16,032 nucleotides of DNA, taken from the NCBI GenBank assembly GCA_027319565.1, contig DAHVNA010000023.1, positions 1-16,032 of the forward strand. The letters run 5' to 3'. The first letter of the stretch is position 1. Each line of letters starts with the position of its first letter. Positions 3,001-15,000 of the stretch are shown piece after piece. Source of the stretch: Elusimicrobiota bacterium (GTDB lineage Bacteria; Elusimicrobiota; Elusimicrobia; UBA1565; UBA9628). A program made the position numbers.

Positions 3001-6000
3001 TGCAGCAGATCATGCAGATGCTGATGATGGCGGTTGTCGGTGGGCTTGCCGGCGGAGTTGTCAAGGGAGTTTTGGGGGCCATTGGGTTAGCCGCTTGATT
3101 TGAGAGGTATTTTTATGGAAACAAAACAAAACGGTCCTAAAATTAACAAAGGTGAAAAAACGGGACTGGCTGGAATTCTCAGCGCCTTGGGCTGGAACGC
3201 AGCGGAGGGAGAAGCTGTCTCCGGCGGTTTGGGGGGAATGATTGACGCGGCAACCTCTGGCGGGCTTTTGGCGACCAAGGCCGGAATCGTGGGACTTGTT
3301 TTGGCGGGAACGACTGTGGCCGGAGGCGTGGGTTGGCTGGGATACAAAGTTTTGGGCCCCGGGCCTGGAGACAAGGCGCATGCCCATTTTCAGGTTTTTC
3401 AACCAAGGCCGGCGCAATCCGCTTCGGGACAATCTCAAGGTGGCGGCAATTCTCCAAACTCCGGTCAGTCTTCCTTGGGAGATCTTAGTCAGGCCAATCA
3501 AGGGGCGATGGGAGAAGCGGCCGCTTCATTAAACTCTGCTCCGGCTGCTTCCGCGGCCATTGGGGCCGCCCCCAAATCTCCCAATGTCGGTAAGGTTTTT
3601 GGCGGTAAAGCTTCTAAGGTGATGCCGAAATTAGCCGGAGCCGCTAAAATCGGTCAACTTTCTAATCTCAACGCCGCGGGTCCCGCCGCGGCCGCGAAAC
3701 CCGCCGCGGCAAAACCCATGGCGGTGGGGGCGCTGCCCGGTGGCGCTGGAGCGGGAGCTCCGCATGGCGCGGTGGCGGGACGGGGATTTGGCGGATCATC
3801 GGGTGGCGGCGGCGGTGGTTTTCGAGCGATGAACGGCGCTGGAACGGGTTATGGCGGACTTGGTCCCAACAATGTTCCTGGAAATGCTCTTTTCGATGGG
3901 ACTCATGCCTCTGGTATCGGTACCCCTAGCGGTTCTGGGTTGGGAGGAGTAGGAAGCGGAGCTCCCACCCAGTTTCCAGCCGCGTCCAGTTACGGCGGTC
4001 AATTTTCTCCTCAAGGCGGGAACCAAATGCCCTACACTGGCAACGGCACGGACGTGACCCCTTGGCAGGGCGCGATCAATCTGGCGATCATGCTGTCTCT
4101 TTTGGCTGGTGCGCTTATGTATGCGGCTTTCGCATTGTCGAAGTCACAAACTCTGAGCGTTGGTACTCTCAAGGCGATTTTGGCAGTTCTTGGAGTTGTT
4201 ATTGCCGCAGTTGGAGGATTTATCGCCTATCTTGGCAGCCAAATTGCGGGAGGGCAATTCGGCCAATCATTCCAGGGCGGAGCCTTTACCTTGGCGGGAA
4301 CATTTATCGCCATGTCTGGTATGGCTATTGCGGCAGGGGGGGCTGCAGGGGATTTTACTAAGGCAGGTTTTGGTGGTACGACGTCTATGGTTTTCATGGC
4401 TTGTGGGGCCGTGGGATTATTGAGCGCCATGGCGGGCTATCTTGTTCCCGGTCAGCAGTATCCTTCGACGATGTTCTACGGGAACCCTCCTGACTGGACC
4501 AACCCTAATGCCCAGGTCAACCCCAATCCCTATCAATACAATCCCTACTATGGTGGCTCTAGTATGGGAGGTATCCCGTAATCATAGCGCTCATAACTCC
4601 TAGGGTCTTGACAAAGTCAGTATTTCTGTTACACTTCTAAGGACGTATCCCGTATAGTTTATTCGCGGTCGAGGGGGCAAAAAAAACCGCGAGAATTTTC
4701 TCTATGCGGGCGATAAAGGCAAACCCGTGCCGAAAGGCACGCGGCTTCCTAGTCTTCGTATAAGACAGGGATTCCGCGCCGTAAGGCGGGGGCGCAAAGC
4801 CGTGACTCCTTTCGAGGAGCGTCAGGCTGCCGAAATGAATGGCCCAAGCTAAGGCGAGAGGCCTGTCGTTTTATAGACAGGCGCGTATTGCCGCAGGGAG
4901 AATTCTCTCTGCGGGGTTTCTTGTTTTCTTTTCCGTGCCCGCCTTTTCCCAACTCCTCTCTCAAAGCGCGATTGGAGGTCTCCCTGGGAATTTTCTTCTC
5001 TACGGCGTTGGCGCGAAGGCCTTGGCCATGGGCGGAGCTTTCTACGGCTTGTCTAATGACGCGACCGCGGGCAACTGGAACCCGGCGGGACTCGCGCAGC
5101 TTCAGAGAAAGCAATTGACCTTTATGGACGGAGCCTTGCCCCAGCAGACAAGCCTTGATTATCTCGCCTATGCACAGCCGCTTAAAGGCGGCAGCACTTT
5201 TGCCGGGTCTTTTACGAAACTTTCCGCCGGCGGATTTCAAAATGAGACCGCCACCTACAATCCACAGGGAACTCTGACCGGACTGACCTCCGAGGGCTCT
5301 TTTACCAATGCGCAACAAGCCATTAGCTTTTCCTGGGCGAAAAGCCTGACCAAGACGACCTCTTTTGGCGCGACGGTTCAGGAAGTTTCAAACAGCTTGG
5401 CCGGATACTCGAGCAACACCCAAGCCCTTAACATCGGAATGCTCAAGACCTTCGGGTTCTATCATCTGGGATTAGGCGTTCAAAACGCTTTTTCAAGAAC
5501 CGCCGGCGCGACCAGCGATCAATATCCGGTCATCGTCAGAATGGGAAACGCCATCGAACTTTTCCATGATCGCCTGATTTTGGATATGGATTTAAATAAG
5601 CCCTTGACCCCGGGGCTTGACGTCAATTTCGGCGGAGAGTATCATCTTTCTCAATGGTTCGCGTTTCGCTTTGGTCTCATGGGAATTCCTCAAATTCAGG
5701 AAACCGATTTCGGATTCGGACTGGATTTCCAAACTTTCCAGGTGGATGTTGCCGAGGGAATTGGAAACCTTGGGACCAGCACAAAAATCTCTCTAGGGTT
5801 TAAGTTTGGCGAGAGTAAAACCGCCAACACTAATGCCAAGGTCAAAGCGGTTTTAAAATCCGCCTTTGAGGCTCTTCAGGAGGGAAATTTCACCTTGGCC
5901 CAGGCCCGCTTTAAAGAAGCTCTTTATATCCAGCCGGGAAATAACAAAATTCAGCAAATGATTGATCGTCTTAAAACTGTCACCGATCATGTGCCCCAAG

Positions 6001-12000: not shown

Positions 12001-15000
12001 TTGGCTTCGGCTTATTTCGGCCTGGGCTCGGGCTATCTTATTTTTCTTCCGATGGGCGGAAAATTGCGCCGGAGATCTGAAGAAGAGCTTCTGGTCAAGG
12101 AAATCATTATCCGCGGAGTTCTCCTCCTTCAAAGCGGCGCGACCCCGAGCGTGGTTGAGGCCAATTTAAAGGCTTATCTTGAGCCGGCCAAACGCGGGGC
12201 CATCAAAACCCAGACTGCTTAAATTTTTATGCCTCTCAAACCGCCAAAAGGTTTTATCGACGAATCCGATCCCAAGGTGGCCCAGATCGGCCATCCGGCC
12301 CCGCCATGGCTGGTCAATTATGCGGACCTCATGACCGAGATTGCCTGTTTTTTTATCATTCTCTATGCCCTTTCGACTTCTTTAAATAAACAGGTTCAAC
12401 AGGCGGTCGAGGATGTTCAAAAGATGGTGAATACCAAACAGATTAGCGGCACGGTTGCAGTCGACCGTGAGGGATTAAAAATTACGCTCAACGAAGAAGG
12501 CCATGTTTCTTTCTTTAAAAGCGGAGAGGCGGACACCACCCCTGCCATGGATGCGATGATCGCCAAACTCGTGCCGACCCTTCGGAAATTGGCCGTAGAT
12601 CACGATATTATCGTTGAAGGCCATACCGACAACCGTAAAATCTCCAACCAATATTTCGACTCGAACTGGGAACTCTCGACGGCGCGGGCGACGATGGTCG
12701 TCAGGCTTCTTAAAAATAAATACGGGCTTCCGCCGAATCGTTTGGGCGCTTTAGGATACGGCCAATATCGCCCGATTGCCTCGAACAATACCCCCGAGGG
12801 CCGCGCGGAAAACCGTCGTGTCGTTTTTTGGGTTAAGAATCTTTCTCCCTCGGACAAGAAAATTGTTTCGGGTTCCGGAGGGGCAAAAGCCAAGGCTTTG
12901 ACTGCCCATCCCCCAGCGTCCGTGCCTGAGAAAAAAGAGAATCAGCCGAATATAAAAGGGCTATAATGAGTTTAATGTTGGATTTAAAAAAGACATTGTG
13001 TCTGTTGGGCTTGGGATTTACTTTTGCGTGCGCCACTCTTCCCAAGGGCGTTCCAACGCCTTTGCCTTTAAAGCCTCTTCCCGTCGCGTTTCAAGCGCCT
13101 CCTTTGTTTAGCCGCGCGGATCTTAACGCTTTTTCTTGGAAGGCCCCCGTGGGACGCCCACCTTTTCCACACCTCAGGTTAACGCTGCTTCCCACTCAAA
13201 ATTCTCAAAACTCCGAAATTTTTGTTGCCCAGATTCTTAAGTGGCTTTCCAATCACGAGGGGCCTTTAAGCGGCGAGATGTCTCCGGGAACGGTTTTCTC
13301 TCAGGTTCAAGAACTTTTTAAGGACAATTTCGAGGCGGCCTCTCAAGATTTAGAGGGCGCGGATATCCAAACCGATGTGGACTGGTCTCTCGCTCTCCCG
13401 GTTTTAGAAGGTCGCTATGAGCAAAATAAAATTGAGATGAATCTTGCGGTTGCCTTCATGACGCCGGAGGGCAAACAAATTGAAGCCATTAAAGTTCACT
13501 CCTCTGAATCAATGGGCGCGAAAGATTGTTCCCGATATGTGAGTCTTGCCCATGAAGAAGGTTTTCCCGCTTCTCAAACCCAGTGTTTTGAAAGAGGGTT
13601 TCTTGTGGCTTTAAGCGATTTGTTGGGGCGTTTAGAGTCTTCTCTGATTCATTCAAAAGCCTTAGGGCTTTACCAATCACAGCTGGTCTCCCATCAGGCG
13701 GCAGAAGAGCCCATCCCGCCCAATGTCTTTAATTCTCAAAAGACGGCAGAGGCTTTGAAGCCTTCCGCGGCATCTTCCCATTCTCTTCACTCGGATGTGG
13801 ATTCTCCGACCTATGCTTTGAGCGCCGCGCGAGACAATTACGCGGTGGTGGTGGGCATCCAGAAATATGAGAATGTCGCGAACGCTGAGTTCGCCGTCAA
13901 TGACGCGCGGGCGATGAGGCGCCATTTATTGGCCTTGGGCTTTCCCGAGCAAAATATCGCTTTTTTAACCGACAGCCAAGCGACCAAAAGCGGGATTGAT
14001 AAGTATGTGGCCAGTTGGCTGCCCAATCATTCTTCCAAGCAGTCTAAAATATTTTTTTACTTTTCCGGACATGGGGCTAACGATCCAGTATCTCACCAGG
14101 CGTATTTGGTGCCTTGGGACGGGGACCCCGCATTTTTGAGCGCCACCGGATATTCCATCGCCCATTTATACCGGCAAATCAATAAAATTAAGGCGGGGCG
14201 CTTAATCGTCGTTTTAGATTCCTGCTTTTCAGGGCAAGGACCGCGCTCGGTGATGGCCAAGGGGCTTCGCCCCTTAGTAGAAAAAGTGGATATGGGACCG
14301 GCGAGTTTGGGAAAAATCGCCGGGTTAGCCGCCGCGGGCCCCGAGCAAGTGGAGGGCGTCATCCCGGAGGAAGGGCACGGAATTTTGACCTACTACCTTT
14401 TAAAGGGGCTTAACCGCTCTCAAGGCCTTGGCAAACTGAACGAAATTTATCATTATATGGAACCGCGAGTAGAAGATGTCGCGCGCAGCGAGGGGAGAGT
14501 TCAGACCCCTCAACTCATGGGGAAAAACACCCTGATTACGTTAGGAGGCATTTTAAAATGAAAACTTTAATTCTGGTTTTTGCCGGCGCCGCCGGTGTCG
14601 TGGCTTTCGCTTTCGGTTGCGCTCCTAAAACGGGCAATTATCATATGGTTCATTCAGATTCAAAGAACGCTCAGCAGGATCTCAATCAGGCGATTTTAAA
14701 CCATCCGCTCCAATGAAGGGAGTTTCTTTAAAAATATGAGAAAATTTCTTTGGTCCGCGGCCGCTCTAAGTTTTATCTTGGCATGCCACGCGACGAAAAC
14801 TCCTAATTATGCCGCGATTAAAGCCGATGCGGCCAAGGCCGAGGCGGAATTGCCGTCCGGCTCATCTAATAATATCAAGGGTTCTTCTCAAACCGATTCT
14901 TCTTCCGGAAACGGAAGTTCTAACGTAGTTGATGATTCTCTCAACGCAAAAATTACCGGCCGCAGCAAGCGGATGAAATGCACCTGGGTTGAGTCCCAAG

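Follow-up and report, generated by a model that had tools for sequence, protein, structure and literature searches.

The window analysed here, a 16,032-nucleotide stretch of DNA from an Elusimicrobiota bacterium (assembly GCA_027319565.1, contig DAHVNA010000023.1), contains a conserved gene set. It suggests a so far undescribed ion-driven machine, whose likeliest task is to move a giant surface protein. Our analysis supports a FliF/FliG ring that is not flagellar, has MotAB of the flagellar type and is tied to a PorV-like outer-membrane barrel, behind a riboswitch of the c-di-GMP-I family. An earlier note had placed a barrel, a FliF-like/FliG fusion, an 894-aa coiled coil, FlbD, MotA and MotB behind such a riboswitch, and all of these are present (Table 1). 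The same note called the machine stand-alone, which our analysis does not support: there are three further partners, and the operon travels with two of them, a giant adhesin-like CTD protein and a conserved lipoprotein encoded after motB, in a cell that has the third, a SprA-like T9SS translocon.

Components of the operon

Table 1. Features of the motor operon in the window.
Feature	Position	Strand	Basis or remark
Sigma-70-type promoter-like site with extended -10	4608..4635	+	consensus match only, 10/12; best site of scan
c-di-GMP-I-family riboswitch aptamer	4708..4834	+	Rfam RF01051, 42.3 bits (cut-off, gathering score, 35)
Outer-membrane barrel of the PorV family, 14 strands (residues about 91-323), and C-terminal TPR tail (about 327-536)	4839..6452	+	NF033709, AF2, Foldseek
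Rotor fusion (probable signal peptide, FliF RBM3/beta-collar, TM, FliG M-C, TPR)	6543..8507	+	longest ORF opens at 6456
Fusion: probable signal peptide	about 6543-6602	+	
Fusion: FliF RBM3/beta-collar domain	6621-7151	+	
Fusion: invariant LPG[IV]PxP loop in collar domain	about 6855-6875	+	
Fusion: single TM	about 7176-7232	+	
Fusion: FliG M-C	about 7455-8114	+	
Fusion: cytoplasmic TPR	about 8223-8444	+	
Coiled-coil protein, 894 aa	8500..11184	+	conserved N-terminal block
FlbD/SwrD-family small protein, 76 aa	11197..11427	+	PF06289 1.7e-20
MotA, flagellar type	11440..12222	+	solved MotA/PomA 2e-48
MotB with plug, ion-binding Asp, OmpA-like wall anchor	12229..12966	+	PF13677, PF00691

As shown by both sequence and fold, one protein unites the ring-forming RBM3/collar domain of FliF, which is periplasmic, a single TM helix and, on the cytoplasmic side, the torque-receiving M-C part of FliG. 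The ORF 6456-8507, whose true start is probably 6543, matches the profiles FliG_C (7e-24), FliG_M (4e-9), YscJ_FliF_C (0.023) and TPR, and contains neither FliF RBM1/2 nor the FliG N domain. Previously regarded as a weak hit, the FliF-like domain now stands on firmer ground: hhalign matches it to six flagellar FliFs with a probability of 95.9 (E 5e-9), each of the top 18 Foldseek matches is a FliF, and RBM3 structure alignments give VIA Z 11.3 (rmsd 4.0, 111 aligned) and Z 10.1 (rmsd 1.9, 91 aligned). The two TM helices proposed before are probably one. The first hydrophobic stretch varies and, with a median hydropathy of 1.8 over 68 orthologues, falls below the second (2.6), so that it looks like a cleavable signal peptide.

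Residues at the rotor-stator contact are kept in part. Equivalents of FliG K264 and D288 are invariant in all 68 fusions and the basic residue of MotA (PomA R88 equivalent) is K/R in 49/49. An unchanged flagellar FliG-MotA interface, as the earlier note would have it, is not supported, since the FliG R281 equivalent is gone in 67/68 fusions (R in 1/68) and the MotA E98 equivalent is Q in 40/49 and acidic in 8/49. The equivalent of FliG R297 is also lost. Q at the E98 position occurs as well in one flagellar MotA of the phylum. At the ion site the MotA TM3 Thr is present in 49/49 sequences and the TM4 Thr is replaced by Ala in 48/49; MotB retains its ion-binding Asp in 48/50 and has an extra Glu four residues downstream in 47/50, which would be a changed site where the MotB Glu replaces the MotA Thr. 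The EHPQ motif of FliG, which binds FliM, is found in 0/68 main fusion rows and in 3/6 flagellar FliGs. The small protein preceding MotA belongs to PF06289, a family that we take to include SwrD. The SwrD of B. subtilis is named among torque enhancers in PMC13277936.

The barrel protein scores just below the NF033709 cut-off of 90 (88.7 bits, E 5e-25); other PorV-family barrels exceed it in 4 of 8 scanned. A new AF2 model (pLDDT 85.6, 14 strands, 11 helices), whose top Foldseek matches are PorV 8GL6_F (2e-14) and 6H3I_F (3e-12), confirms the PorV-like outer-membrane barrel with TPR tail. Because the strand number is even the tail is presumably periplasmic. A complex prediction for tail and RBM3 domain gave 0.21 against a mark of 0.32, which counts neither for nor against contact. 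The coiled-coil protein (457-1080 aa among complete orthologues) has no signal peptide or TM (peak hydropathy 0.43) and so is cytoplasmic; Pfam and NCBIfam scans gave no match and an Atlas search returned unnamed clusters only.

The riboswitch, whose P2 carries a multi-hairpin insertion of 57 nt according to folding and alignment, ends 4 nt before the barrel gene, and a match to the family lies directly 5' of the barrel gene in 13/13 related loci scanned, 9 of which scored best with the GGC variant model. The window's genome has three c-di-GMP-I riboswitches in all, one upstream of the motor operon, one of sprA and one of what is probably where the giant gene starts, and promoter-like sites similar to that in Table 1 precede the other two. 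By our assumed numbering, position 20 is G in 8/8 aligned copies. Preference for c-di-GMP or c-AMP-GMP is set by G20 vs A20 (PMC6140456). The c-di-GMP "gating" suggested earlier can only mean control of expression at most, with a putative ligand and direction. Fourteen short contigs from one RNA library, mostly 90-95% alike, map to parts of the operon and are no proof of transcription. Caspase-like and DUF4384/FlgT_N genes lie downstream (12966-15734); they follow motB in the window's genus only and are therefore not counted as machine parts.

Conservation and distribution without flagella

Purifying selection acts on the operon, which is intact (dN/dS 0.005-0.16). Among 40 loci of the order, chosen as strong matches, the whole six-gene order is intact in 37 and the remaining three end at contig edges; the barrel adjoins the fusion in 39 of them and in 23 of 27 loci across the phylum. 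"Strictly conserved", the earlier wording, therefore holds for strong-match loci of the order and is too strong beyond them: only 81/101 order genomes have a strong fusion match (E<1e-50), extra coiled-coil genes are inserted at the phylum level, and three loci of family f7 (L127, L130, L132) have the fusion and FlbD-MotAB without adjoining barrel and coiled-coil genes.

The reported lack of flagellar genes was borne out. The export gate FlhA (FHIPEP) was not found in the window's genome and was found in 0/40 order genomes, and flagellin, FliM/FliN and FliF RBM1-2 each gave 0/5 genomes, including a record titled complete genome (L174), with positive controls in all cases; FHIPEP occurs in 8/331 phylum genomes. 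Free-living Elusimicrobiota, in which the gene set is conserved, are nearly all non-flagellated. Most flagellar genes being missing and some torque residues lost, one might think of a decaying flagellar remnant, an alternative that the earlier note itself had raised. It is contradicted by the dN/dS values and by the distribution, and we consider it barely credible: the main group of fusions is one side of a branch that spans the phylum, apart from flagellar FliG (SH-aLRT 93), and flagellated genomes such as G164 keep the fusion in addition to a regular FliF-FliG cluster. The tree, being quick, long-branched and without an outgroup from other phyla, is silent on origin. The best 80 of 175 loci are titled Elusimicrobia or 'bacterium', bar one 2.6-kb Phycisphaerae-titled contig, and of 20 distant fusions one bears an Elusimicrobiota name and another, on a contig of 4.9 kb that may be misbinned, the name of an archaeal MAG.

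Further operon families exist, and up to four versions of the machine per cell, old within the phylum, would be present. The rotor protein of the second family carries a fused histidine kinase, and the fourth has kinases on its flanks. Together with the altered torque residues and the lack of rod or filament, these kinases speak for a mechanosensor, in which load on the adhesin would be relayed by barrel and ring to the stators or an attached kinase, so as to report surface or host contact instead of producing movement. This reading is improbable in our estimation, as the window's operon has no kinase and complete ion-conducting stators plus FlbD/SwrD under strong selection exceed the needs of a passive sensor.

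That motAB, flbD and fliG occur together in non-flagellated members of the phylum is already in print, and Uzun et al. list these genes as enigmatic. Our literature search found no publication on the machine; bioRxiv supplements (e.g., Fig. S2 of Uzun et al.), outside its scope, may list the genes.

The giant surface protein and its probable export

Directly 5' of the barrel gene, a CTD gene is found in 11 of the 16 listed main-operon loci of families f2 and f3. Complete frames of the giant gene have 12,492, 12,044, 14,446 and 8,005 codons, with lengths up to 19,358; in the window's genome we infer that the C30 and C24 pieces form one such gene. TIGR04183 is above cut-off in 4/6 cargo C-termini, and K[IV]G stands near the end of all 41 CTDs adjoining TPR-tailed barrels and is absent from 5 other CTD-like proteins of the window's genome. 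The giant gave no adhesin domain match, Pfam found nothing across 6,665 residues of one giant and an Atlas search with a segment returned unnamed clusters only; we call it adhesin-like from its size, composition and CTD. A CTD and PorV pair also heads a Tad-like operon (L043) in the window's genome. Two distant genomes that have the operon gave no match to the lipoprotein.

A piece of the giant is present in 75/331 genomes, 72 of which have FliG_C. In family f1 it was detected in 17/23 genomes with the main operon, leaving 6 without a match, vs 0/10 without the operon (Fisher p 9e-5, kin not being independent), and SprA is present in 32/32. Giant gene and operon are thus lost together and SprA remains, so that ordinary export has no need of the motor. 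The SprA-like protein, with orthologues in 292/331 genomes, matches TIGR04189 with E 4e-28 but at 97 bits vs a cut-off of 200, and has no PDB sequence match. As a general energiser of the T9SS the motor was rejected, SprA persisting without it in families f4 and f16.

A narrower role in export strikes us as unlikely. Here ring and MotAB would stand in for GldLM/GldKN and drive the giants' secretion, release or retraction via SprA, with the cell unmoved. GldM and GldN were found in 0/101 order genomes (no positive control gave a signal), sprA has the same riboswitch family in 4/4 genomes of the genus, and f4 and f16 are without both motor and giant, leaving room for a giant-specific need. However, SprA is kept without the motor in 94/96 f4 and 53/89 f16 genomes (FliG_C in 1/96 and 1/89; MotB_plug in 4/96, three weak, and 1/89), 2/2 other genera have no riboswitch within 1.5 kb of sprA, and sprA was never seen beside motor operons.

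It could also be that the adhesin-barrel pair and the ring-stator are co-regulated and mechanically separate, the ring serving as a SpoIIIAG-like conduit or in envelope remodelling. SpoIIIAG is the next fold match behind FliF (Foldseek 1.2e-2, HMM 0.015), CTD-PorV pairs head other operons, the f7 loci are without a barrel, and secreted RBM3-only proteins stand alone. Set against this are the barrel-fusion adjacency, the co-loss with the giant and the TPR-tail family, which accompanies motor operons even without a barrel: in a paralogous motor operon, a free-standing homologue (84-130 bits) lies 3' of MotB at 11/11 loci of the order. We think such separation improbable, and slightly more so than a sensor.

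A proposed surface motor built from flagellar parts

The reading that we favor, to which we give even chances, is that MotAB turns the ring, moving the barrel-anchored giant protein and hence producing surface motility. Its core would be an ion-driven envelope motor of flagellar parts, coupled to a T9SS surface protein and not to a flagellar filament. The fusion may assemble into a ring of about 30 copies, turned by wall-anchored MotA5B2 units with the aid of FlbD/SwrD; without FliM/FliN or the EHPQ motif the CheY switch is presumably missing, and expression is probably what switches the motor on or off. Gene order, co-loss and shared riboswitches suggest that the giant, with its distinct CTD, is exported via the SprA-like translocon and held by the operon's own barrel. 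The TPR tail, perhaps with the lipoprotein, would grip the ring, a candidate site being the invariant collar loop, and rotation would spin or carry the adhesin such that the cell moves on a surface, with the cytoplasmic coiled coil positioning or bracing the motor. Ring assembly, rotation, coupling and motility are all predicted here. The lost torque residues (equivalents of FliG R281 and R297 and of most MotA E98), the f7 loci without a barrel and the CTD-PorV pair on a Tad-like operon count against this reading, as do the giant's lack of an adhesin domain match, the 6 operon-bearing f1 genomes without a giant match and the two distant genomes without the lipoprotein; nor did we identify genes for a rod, hook, bushing or track. 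That this is a distinct motility machine, in which a flagellar-type ring and MotAB turn or convey an 8,000-19,000-residue T9SS protein without type III export, rod, hook or flagellin, we put a little short of even.

With the bacterial flagellar motor the machine shares the RBM3/collar fold, FliG M-C, MotA, MotB (Asp, plug, wall anchor) and FlbD/SwrD, yet it has one chain in place of FliF plus FliG, lacks RBM1/2, the FliG N domain and EHPQ, has lost R281 and exchanged the TM4 Thr for Ala with a new MotB Glu, and has a T9SS barrel as partner; FliM/N, export gate and flagellin were not found. The logic of Flavobacterium gliding is T9SS adhesin, cognate barrel and ion motor, and CTD proteins are described as restricted to Bacteroidota (PMC10202324). 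Alike are the SprA-like translocon, type A-like CTDs, the pairing of cargo genes with PorV-family barrels of their own, a very large surface protein and a 5:2 ion motor; unlike are a motor made of MotAB and an inner-membrane FliF-FliG ring, the TPR tail on the barrel and, in a search without positive control, the failure to find GldM and GldN. SpoIIIAG and other RBM3/beta-collar rings share a single RBM with inserted beta-hairpin, whereas here RBM3 is fused to TM and FliG and encoded with stators, and FliF scores far better. AglZ of the Myxococcus Agl-Glt system is, like our coiled coil, long and cytoplasmic. There too the motor is 5:2, and what it moves is an adhesion complex of the outer membrane (PMC9389320). 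Agl, however, resembles TolQR and exerts its pull via TonB-like proteins, in contrast to a MotAB stator and FliG ring.

The FliG-MotA gear has been described in flagella only, and in a review of the T9SS that secretion system is linked with Bacteroidota and with GldLM as its motor. If true, our reading would mean that the flagellar rotor is detachable from type III export and reusable, with a working FliG-MotA gear outside the flagellum. A minimal rotor of one fusion protein plus MotAB could be expressed and imaged, and the ion site of its stators is a variant provided by nature. For the phylum, it would give a role to unexplained huge proteins and offer an answer to the published motAB/fliG puzzle in non-flagellated members, including how magnetotactic Elusimicrobiota might move.

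Operon organization and the rotor protein

The six genes and the c-di-GMP-I riboswitch described in an earlier note on this DNA were all recovered at the positions it had assigned to them. The fusion and coiled-coil genes overlap by 8 nt, and gaps of 12, 12 and 6 nt separate the genes from there through to motB. The strict conservation also proposed there stands for 40 loci from the order UBA1565, picked as strong matches of the fusion protein: 37 are complete, in the same order and on one strand, and the remaining three are broken by contig ends. In the order as a whole a fusion match at E<1e-50 is found in 81 of 101 genomes. 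Fifteen gene comparisons against three genomes of the genus gave dN/dS values of 0.005-0.16.

Coordinates of the features discussed in the text
Feature	Coordinates	Strand	Remarks
Membrane proteins 5' of promoter	window 2106-4581		two, Gly/Ala/Ser-rich, no family match
Promoter-like site	window 4608-4635		best-scoring of region
c-di-GMP-I riboswitch	window 4708-4834		P2 insertion at 4734-4790
PorV-TPR barrel	window 4839-6452		
FliF-FliG fusion	window 6543-8507		
Coiled coil	window 8500-11184		
Genes 3' of motB	window 12966-15734		lipoprotein-like gene with caspase domain, immediately 3' of motB; DUF4384 protein with weak FlgT_N match
Barrel-like short contig	C80:1-1622		DNA 92% identical to window 4825-6445
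SprA-like translocon, 1,918 aa	C20:15448-21201 (L035:7449-13202)	-	TIGR04189 E 4e-28, below cut-off
Giant orthologue, away from operon	C24:1-18279		6,093 codons, interrupted by contig start
Lipoprotein	C56:46806-47612		relocated, with iscS-mnmA-like genes
Lipoprotein in L047	L047:5229-5951		
Second motor operon (L003)	C33:21154-28835		giant CTD gene, barrel-TPR, kinase-RBM3-FliG fusion, coiled coil, MotA, MotB

The genes flanking the operon on either side are so placed only in this genus, and the short contig that resembles the barrel gene is probably a strain variant within the bin. Genes of 1,500-2,100 codons are inserted between the fusion and coiled-coil genes in L116, L117, L119-L121, L128, L129, L131, L133, L146 and L148; the one that was read, from L116, encodes a coiled coil with a TPR-like end. 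A lipoprotein of ∼240 residues, of no known family and with a weak CarboxypepD_reg match, lies 3' of motB in 36 of 40 order loci. It is present in all four operon-bearing genomes of one comparison and was found neither in six operon-less genomes of family f1 nor in two distant operon-bearing genomes.

The fusion had been assigned two transmembrane helices. Because the first hydrophobic stretch varies among 68 orthologues, is less hydrophobic than the second and has small residues after it, we read it instead as a putative cleavable signal peptide, starting at 6543, so that a single transmembrane helix remains. The 177 residues that follow form a FliF RBM3/beta-collar domain by both profile and fold comparison, bearing out the FliF-like domain suspected previously: the profile matches FliF or SpoIIIAG in six of seven PDB matches and aligns with six flagellar FliFs at a probability of 95.9, while the AF2 model (pLDDT 74) retrieves only FliF at Foldseek ranks 1-18, then SpoIIIAG at rank 19, with VIA Z values to FliF rings of 11.3, 10.7 and 10.1. 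The collar loop, which in FliF contacts the rod, carries an LPG[IV]PxP motif (Pro in 68/68, Gly in 65/68), and PG motifs of a similar kind occur in the collar region of several among seven FliF-like proteins inspected. RBM3 is succeeded by the transmembrane helix, FliG M-C (T. maritima 3AJC, E 1.5e-31) and TPR. A large family of 160-220 residue proteins (P0051, P0060, P0062 and P0064, for example) apparently consists of a signal peptide and RBM3 only, with neither transmembrane helix nor FliG; none was found in the genome studied here.

Torque surface, ion site and paralogous motor operons

FliG residues were placed through the 3AJC alignment, and some of the equivalences between rotor-stator positions are presumed. 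Charged residues named at the interface are MotA R90/E98, PomA R88/K89/E96 and FliG R281/D288/D289 (10.1101/2021.01.07.425829). In the fusions the equivalents of FliG K264 and D288 are invariant (68/68), that of R281 is Arg in only 1 of 68 and the EHPQ motif is absent from the FliG part of all 68. On the stator side the MotA residue matching PomA R88 is Lys or Arg in 49/49, and that matching PomA E96 (MotA E98) is Gln in 40/49, as it is in one flagellar MotA of the phylum. Since the D288 and R88 equivalents are retained and those of R281 and E96 mostly replaced, one charge pair appears intact and the other gone from rotor and stator alike. The ion-binding Asp of MotB is present in 48/50 sequences, with an additional Glu four residues later in 47/50, and in MotA TM4 Ala replaces Thr in 48/49. 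L124, the only locus to have the Thr, is also the one that lacks the Glu, a coincidence that hints at a rebuilt ion site, but only hints since it is a single event.

In the second motor operon of this genome a histidine kinase is fused before RBM3-TM-FliG and the preceding CTD protein has 2,777 residues, a layout repeated in L090, L093, L094 and L103. That the machine of the main operon acts as a mechanosensor strikes us as improbable. A third operon family (L085-L089, L091, L092, L096, L097, L099, L100) contains a pair of distinct MotB genes, each encoding the Asp, whose products possibly form a heterodimeric stator axle. Because its free-standing TPR protein matches the whole barrel-tail profile in 11/11 order loci (84-130 bits, where unrelated TPRs score <40), the TPR tail accompanies the motor where no barrel is present as well. 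Two observations speak against this tie: three loci of family f7 have neither barrel nor coiled coil, and a CTD-PorV pair also heads a Tad-like operon in this genome.

Secretion partners, giant proteins and riboswitches

The operon barrel, modeled with 14 strands and 11 helices, has PorV as best match, as the earlier note had held; what it missed, in describing a stand-alone machine, was a SprA-like protein, CTD proteins and many PorV-family barrels in the same genome. The large proteins end in type A-like CTDs, and most of the barrels are directly 3' of a CTD gene. According to PMC10202324, CTD proteins are restricted to Bacteroidota and genes for cargo and cognate barrel cluster. A SprA-like protein occurs in 292 of 331 phylum genomes, families without the motor included, and by gene content these genomes appear to carry a T9SS-like system outside Bacteroidota. 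The machine is laid out like that of T9SS gliding, yet GldM and GldN of the Gld motor gave no match in 101 order genomes, nor did any positive control.

A CTD gene stands directly 5' of the barrel gene in families f2, f3 and many others, with open frames of 12,492, 12,044, 14,446 and 8,005 codons and others reaching 19,358, the shorter of which may be truncated where a contig stops. In L094, L116, L117, L119-L121, L128, L129, L131, L146 and L148 this position is taken by proteins of 130-160 residues that comprise hardly anything beyond a signal peptide and a CTD. K[IV]G near the end is common to all 41 CTDs adjoining TPR-tailed barrels and is missing from five further CTD-like proteins encoded in this genome. 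Of 331 genomes, 75 yielded a piece of the giant, and 72 of those 75 also have FliG_C. Families f4 and f16, with small genomes and taken for host-associated, have SprA (94/96 and 53/89), little FliG_C (1/96 and 1/89) or MotB_plug (4/96 and 1/89) and no giant. In family f1, where SprA is present in 32/32, the giant occurs in 0/10 genomes without the main operon versus 17/23 with it; the ten span four genera, but related genomes do not count as independent samples, and giant genes, being repetitive, tend to assemble badly. An engine for export or retraction of this giant cargo is conceivable, if rather unlikely.

Three c-di-GMP-I matches were found in the genome: 5' of the main operon, directly 5' of sprA, and on C30, where two short genes come next, followed by a frame of 1,414 codons that the contig end leaves incomplete and that we infer to be the start of the giant. 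The riboswitch precedes the barrel gene in 13/13 loci scanned. It also precedes sprA in 4/4 genomes from this genus, though in neither of two other genera examined; one operon-bearing genome (G381) has no match. For 9 of the 13 the GGC variant model is the best match, c-di-GMP being the putative ligand, and three GGDEF-motif proteins are encoded. A ∼57 nt insertion with extra hairpins in P2, its stems altered among relatives, is shared with L046, L083 and L048 and absent from L047, L061 and L065. That these genes are merely co-regulated, with no mechanical coupling, we regard as about as improbable as mechanosensing, if marginally more so.

Relation to the flagellum and a possible role

Among 331 genomes of the phylum, FlhA was found in 8 and FliG_C in 128. 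The reported absence of flagellar genes stands, with FlhA in 0/40 order genomes and flagellin, FliM/N and FliF RBM1-2 in 0/5, one of the five recorded as a complete genome. Flagellated members such as G164 have an ordinary FliF-FliG cluster and, at a separate place, the fusion; in a quick tree a branch with SH-aLRT 93 separates the 68 main fusions from six flagellar FliGs. A flagellar remnant is thus hardly credible. The machine would work like the core of a flagellar motor, yet by gene content it lies outside the flagellum. CheW-domain genes are present; without FliM their products have no known grip on the fusion ring. L141, a 3.4-kb contig (G219:C153) with ordinary fliF-fliG in an f16 genome without FlhA, is possibly misbinned.

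Homologues of motAB, flbD and fliG were already known from most free-living, non-flagellated Elusimicrobiota, their role left open (Uzun et al., 10.1101/2022.07.08.499144), and in the motility section and other passages of that paper neither the fusion nor the barrel, SprA or giant comes up. Very large proteins of the phylum have been noted without function (10.1101/2023.11.21.568195, PMC11573180); general background came from PMC12204202, PMC7031533, PMC13277936, PMC9389320, PMC6140456 and PMC7266159. Within the open-access literature, most subscription papers being outside coverage, we found no description of a machine joining these parts. We consider the chances evenly balanced that this machine serves surface motility: the fusion would assemble into a ring turned by MotAB, the turning ring, coupled across the wall, would move the barrel-held giant protein, and its movement would in turn carry the cell over surfaces.
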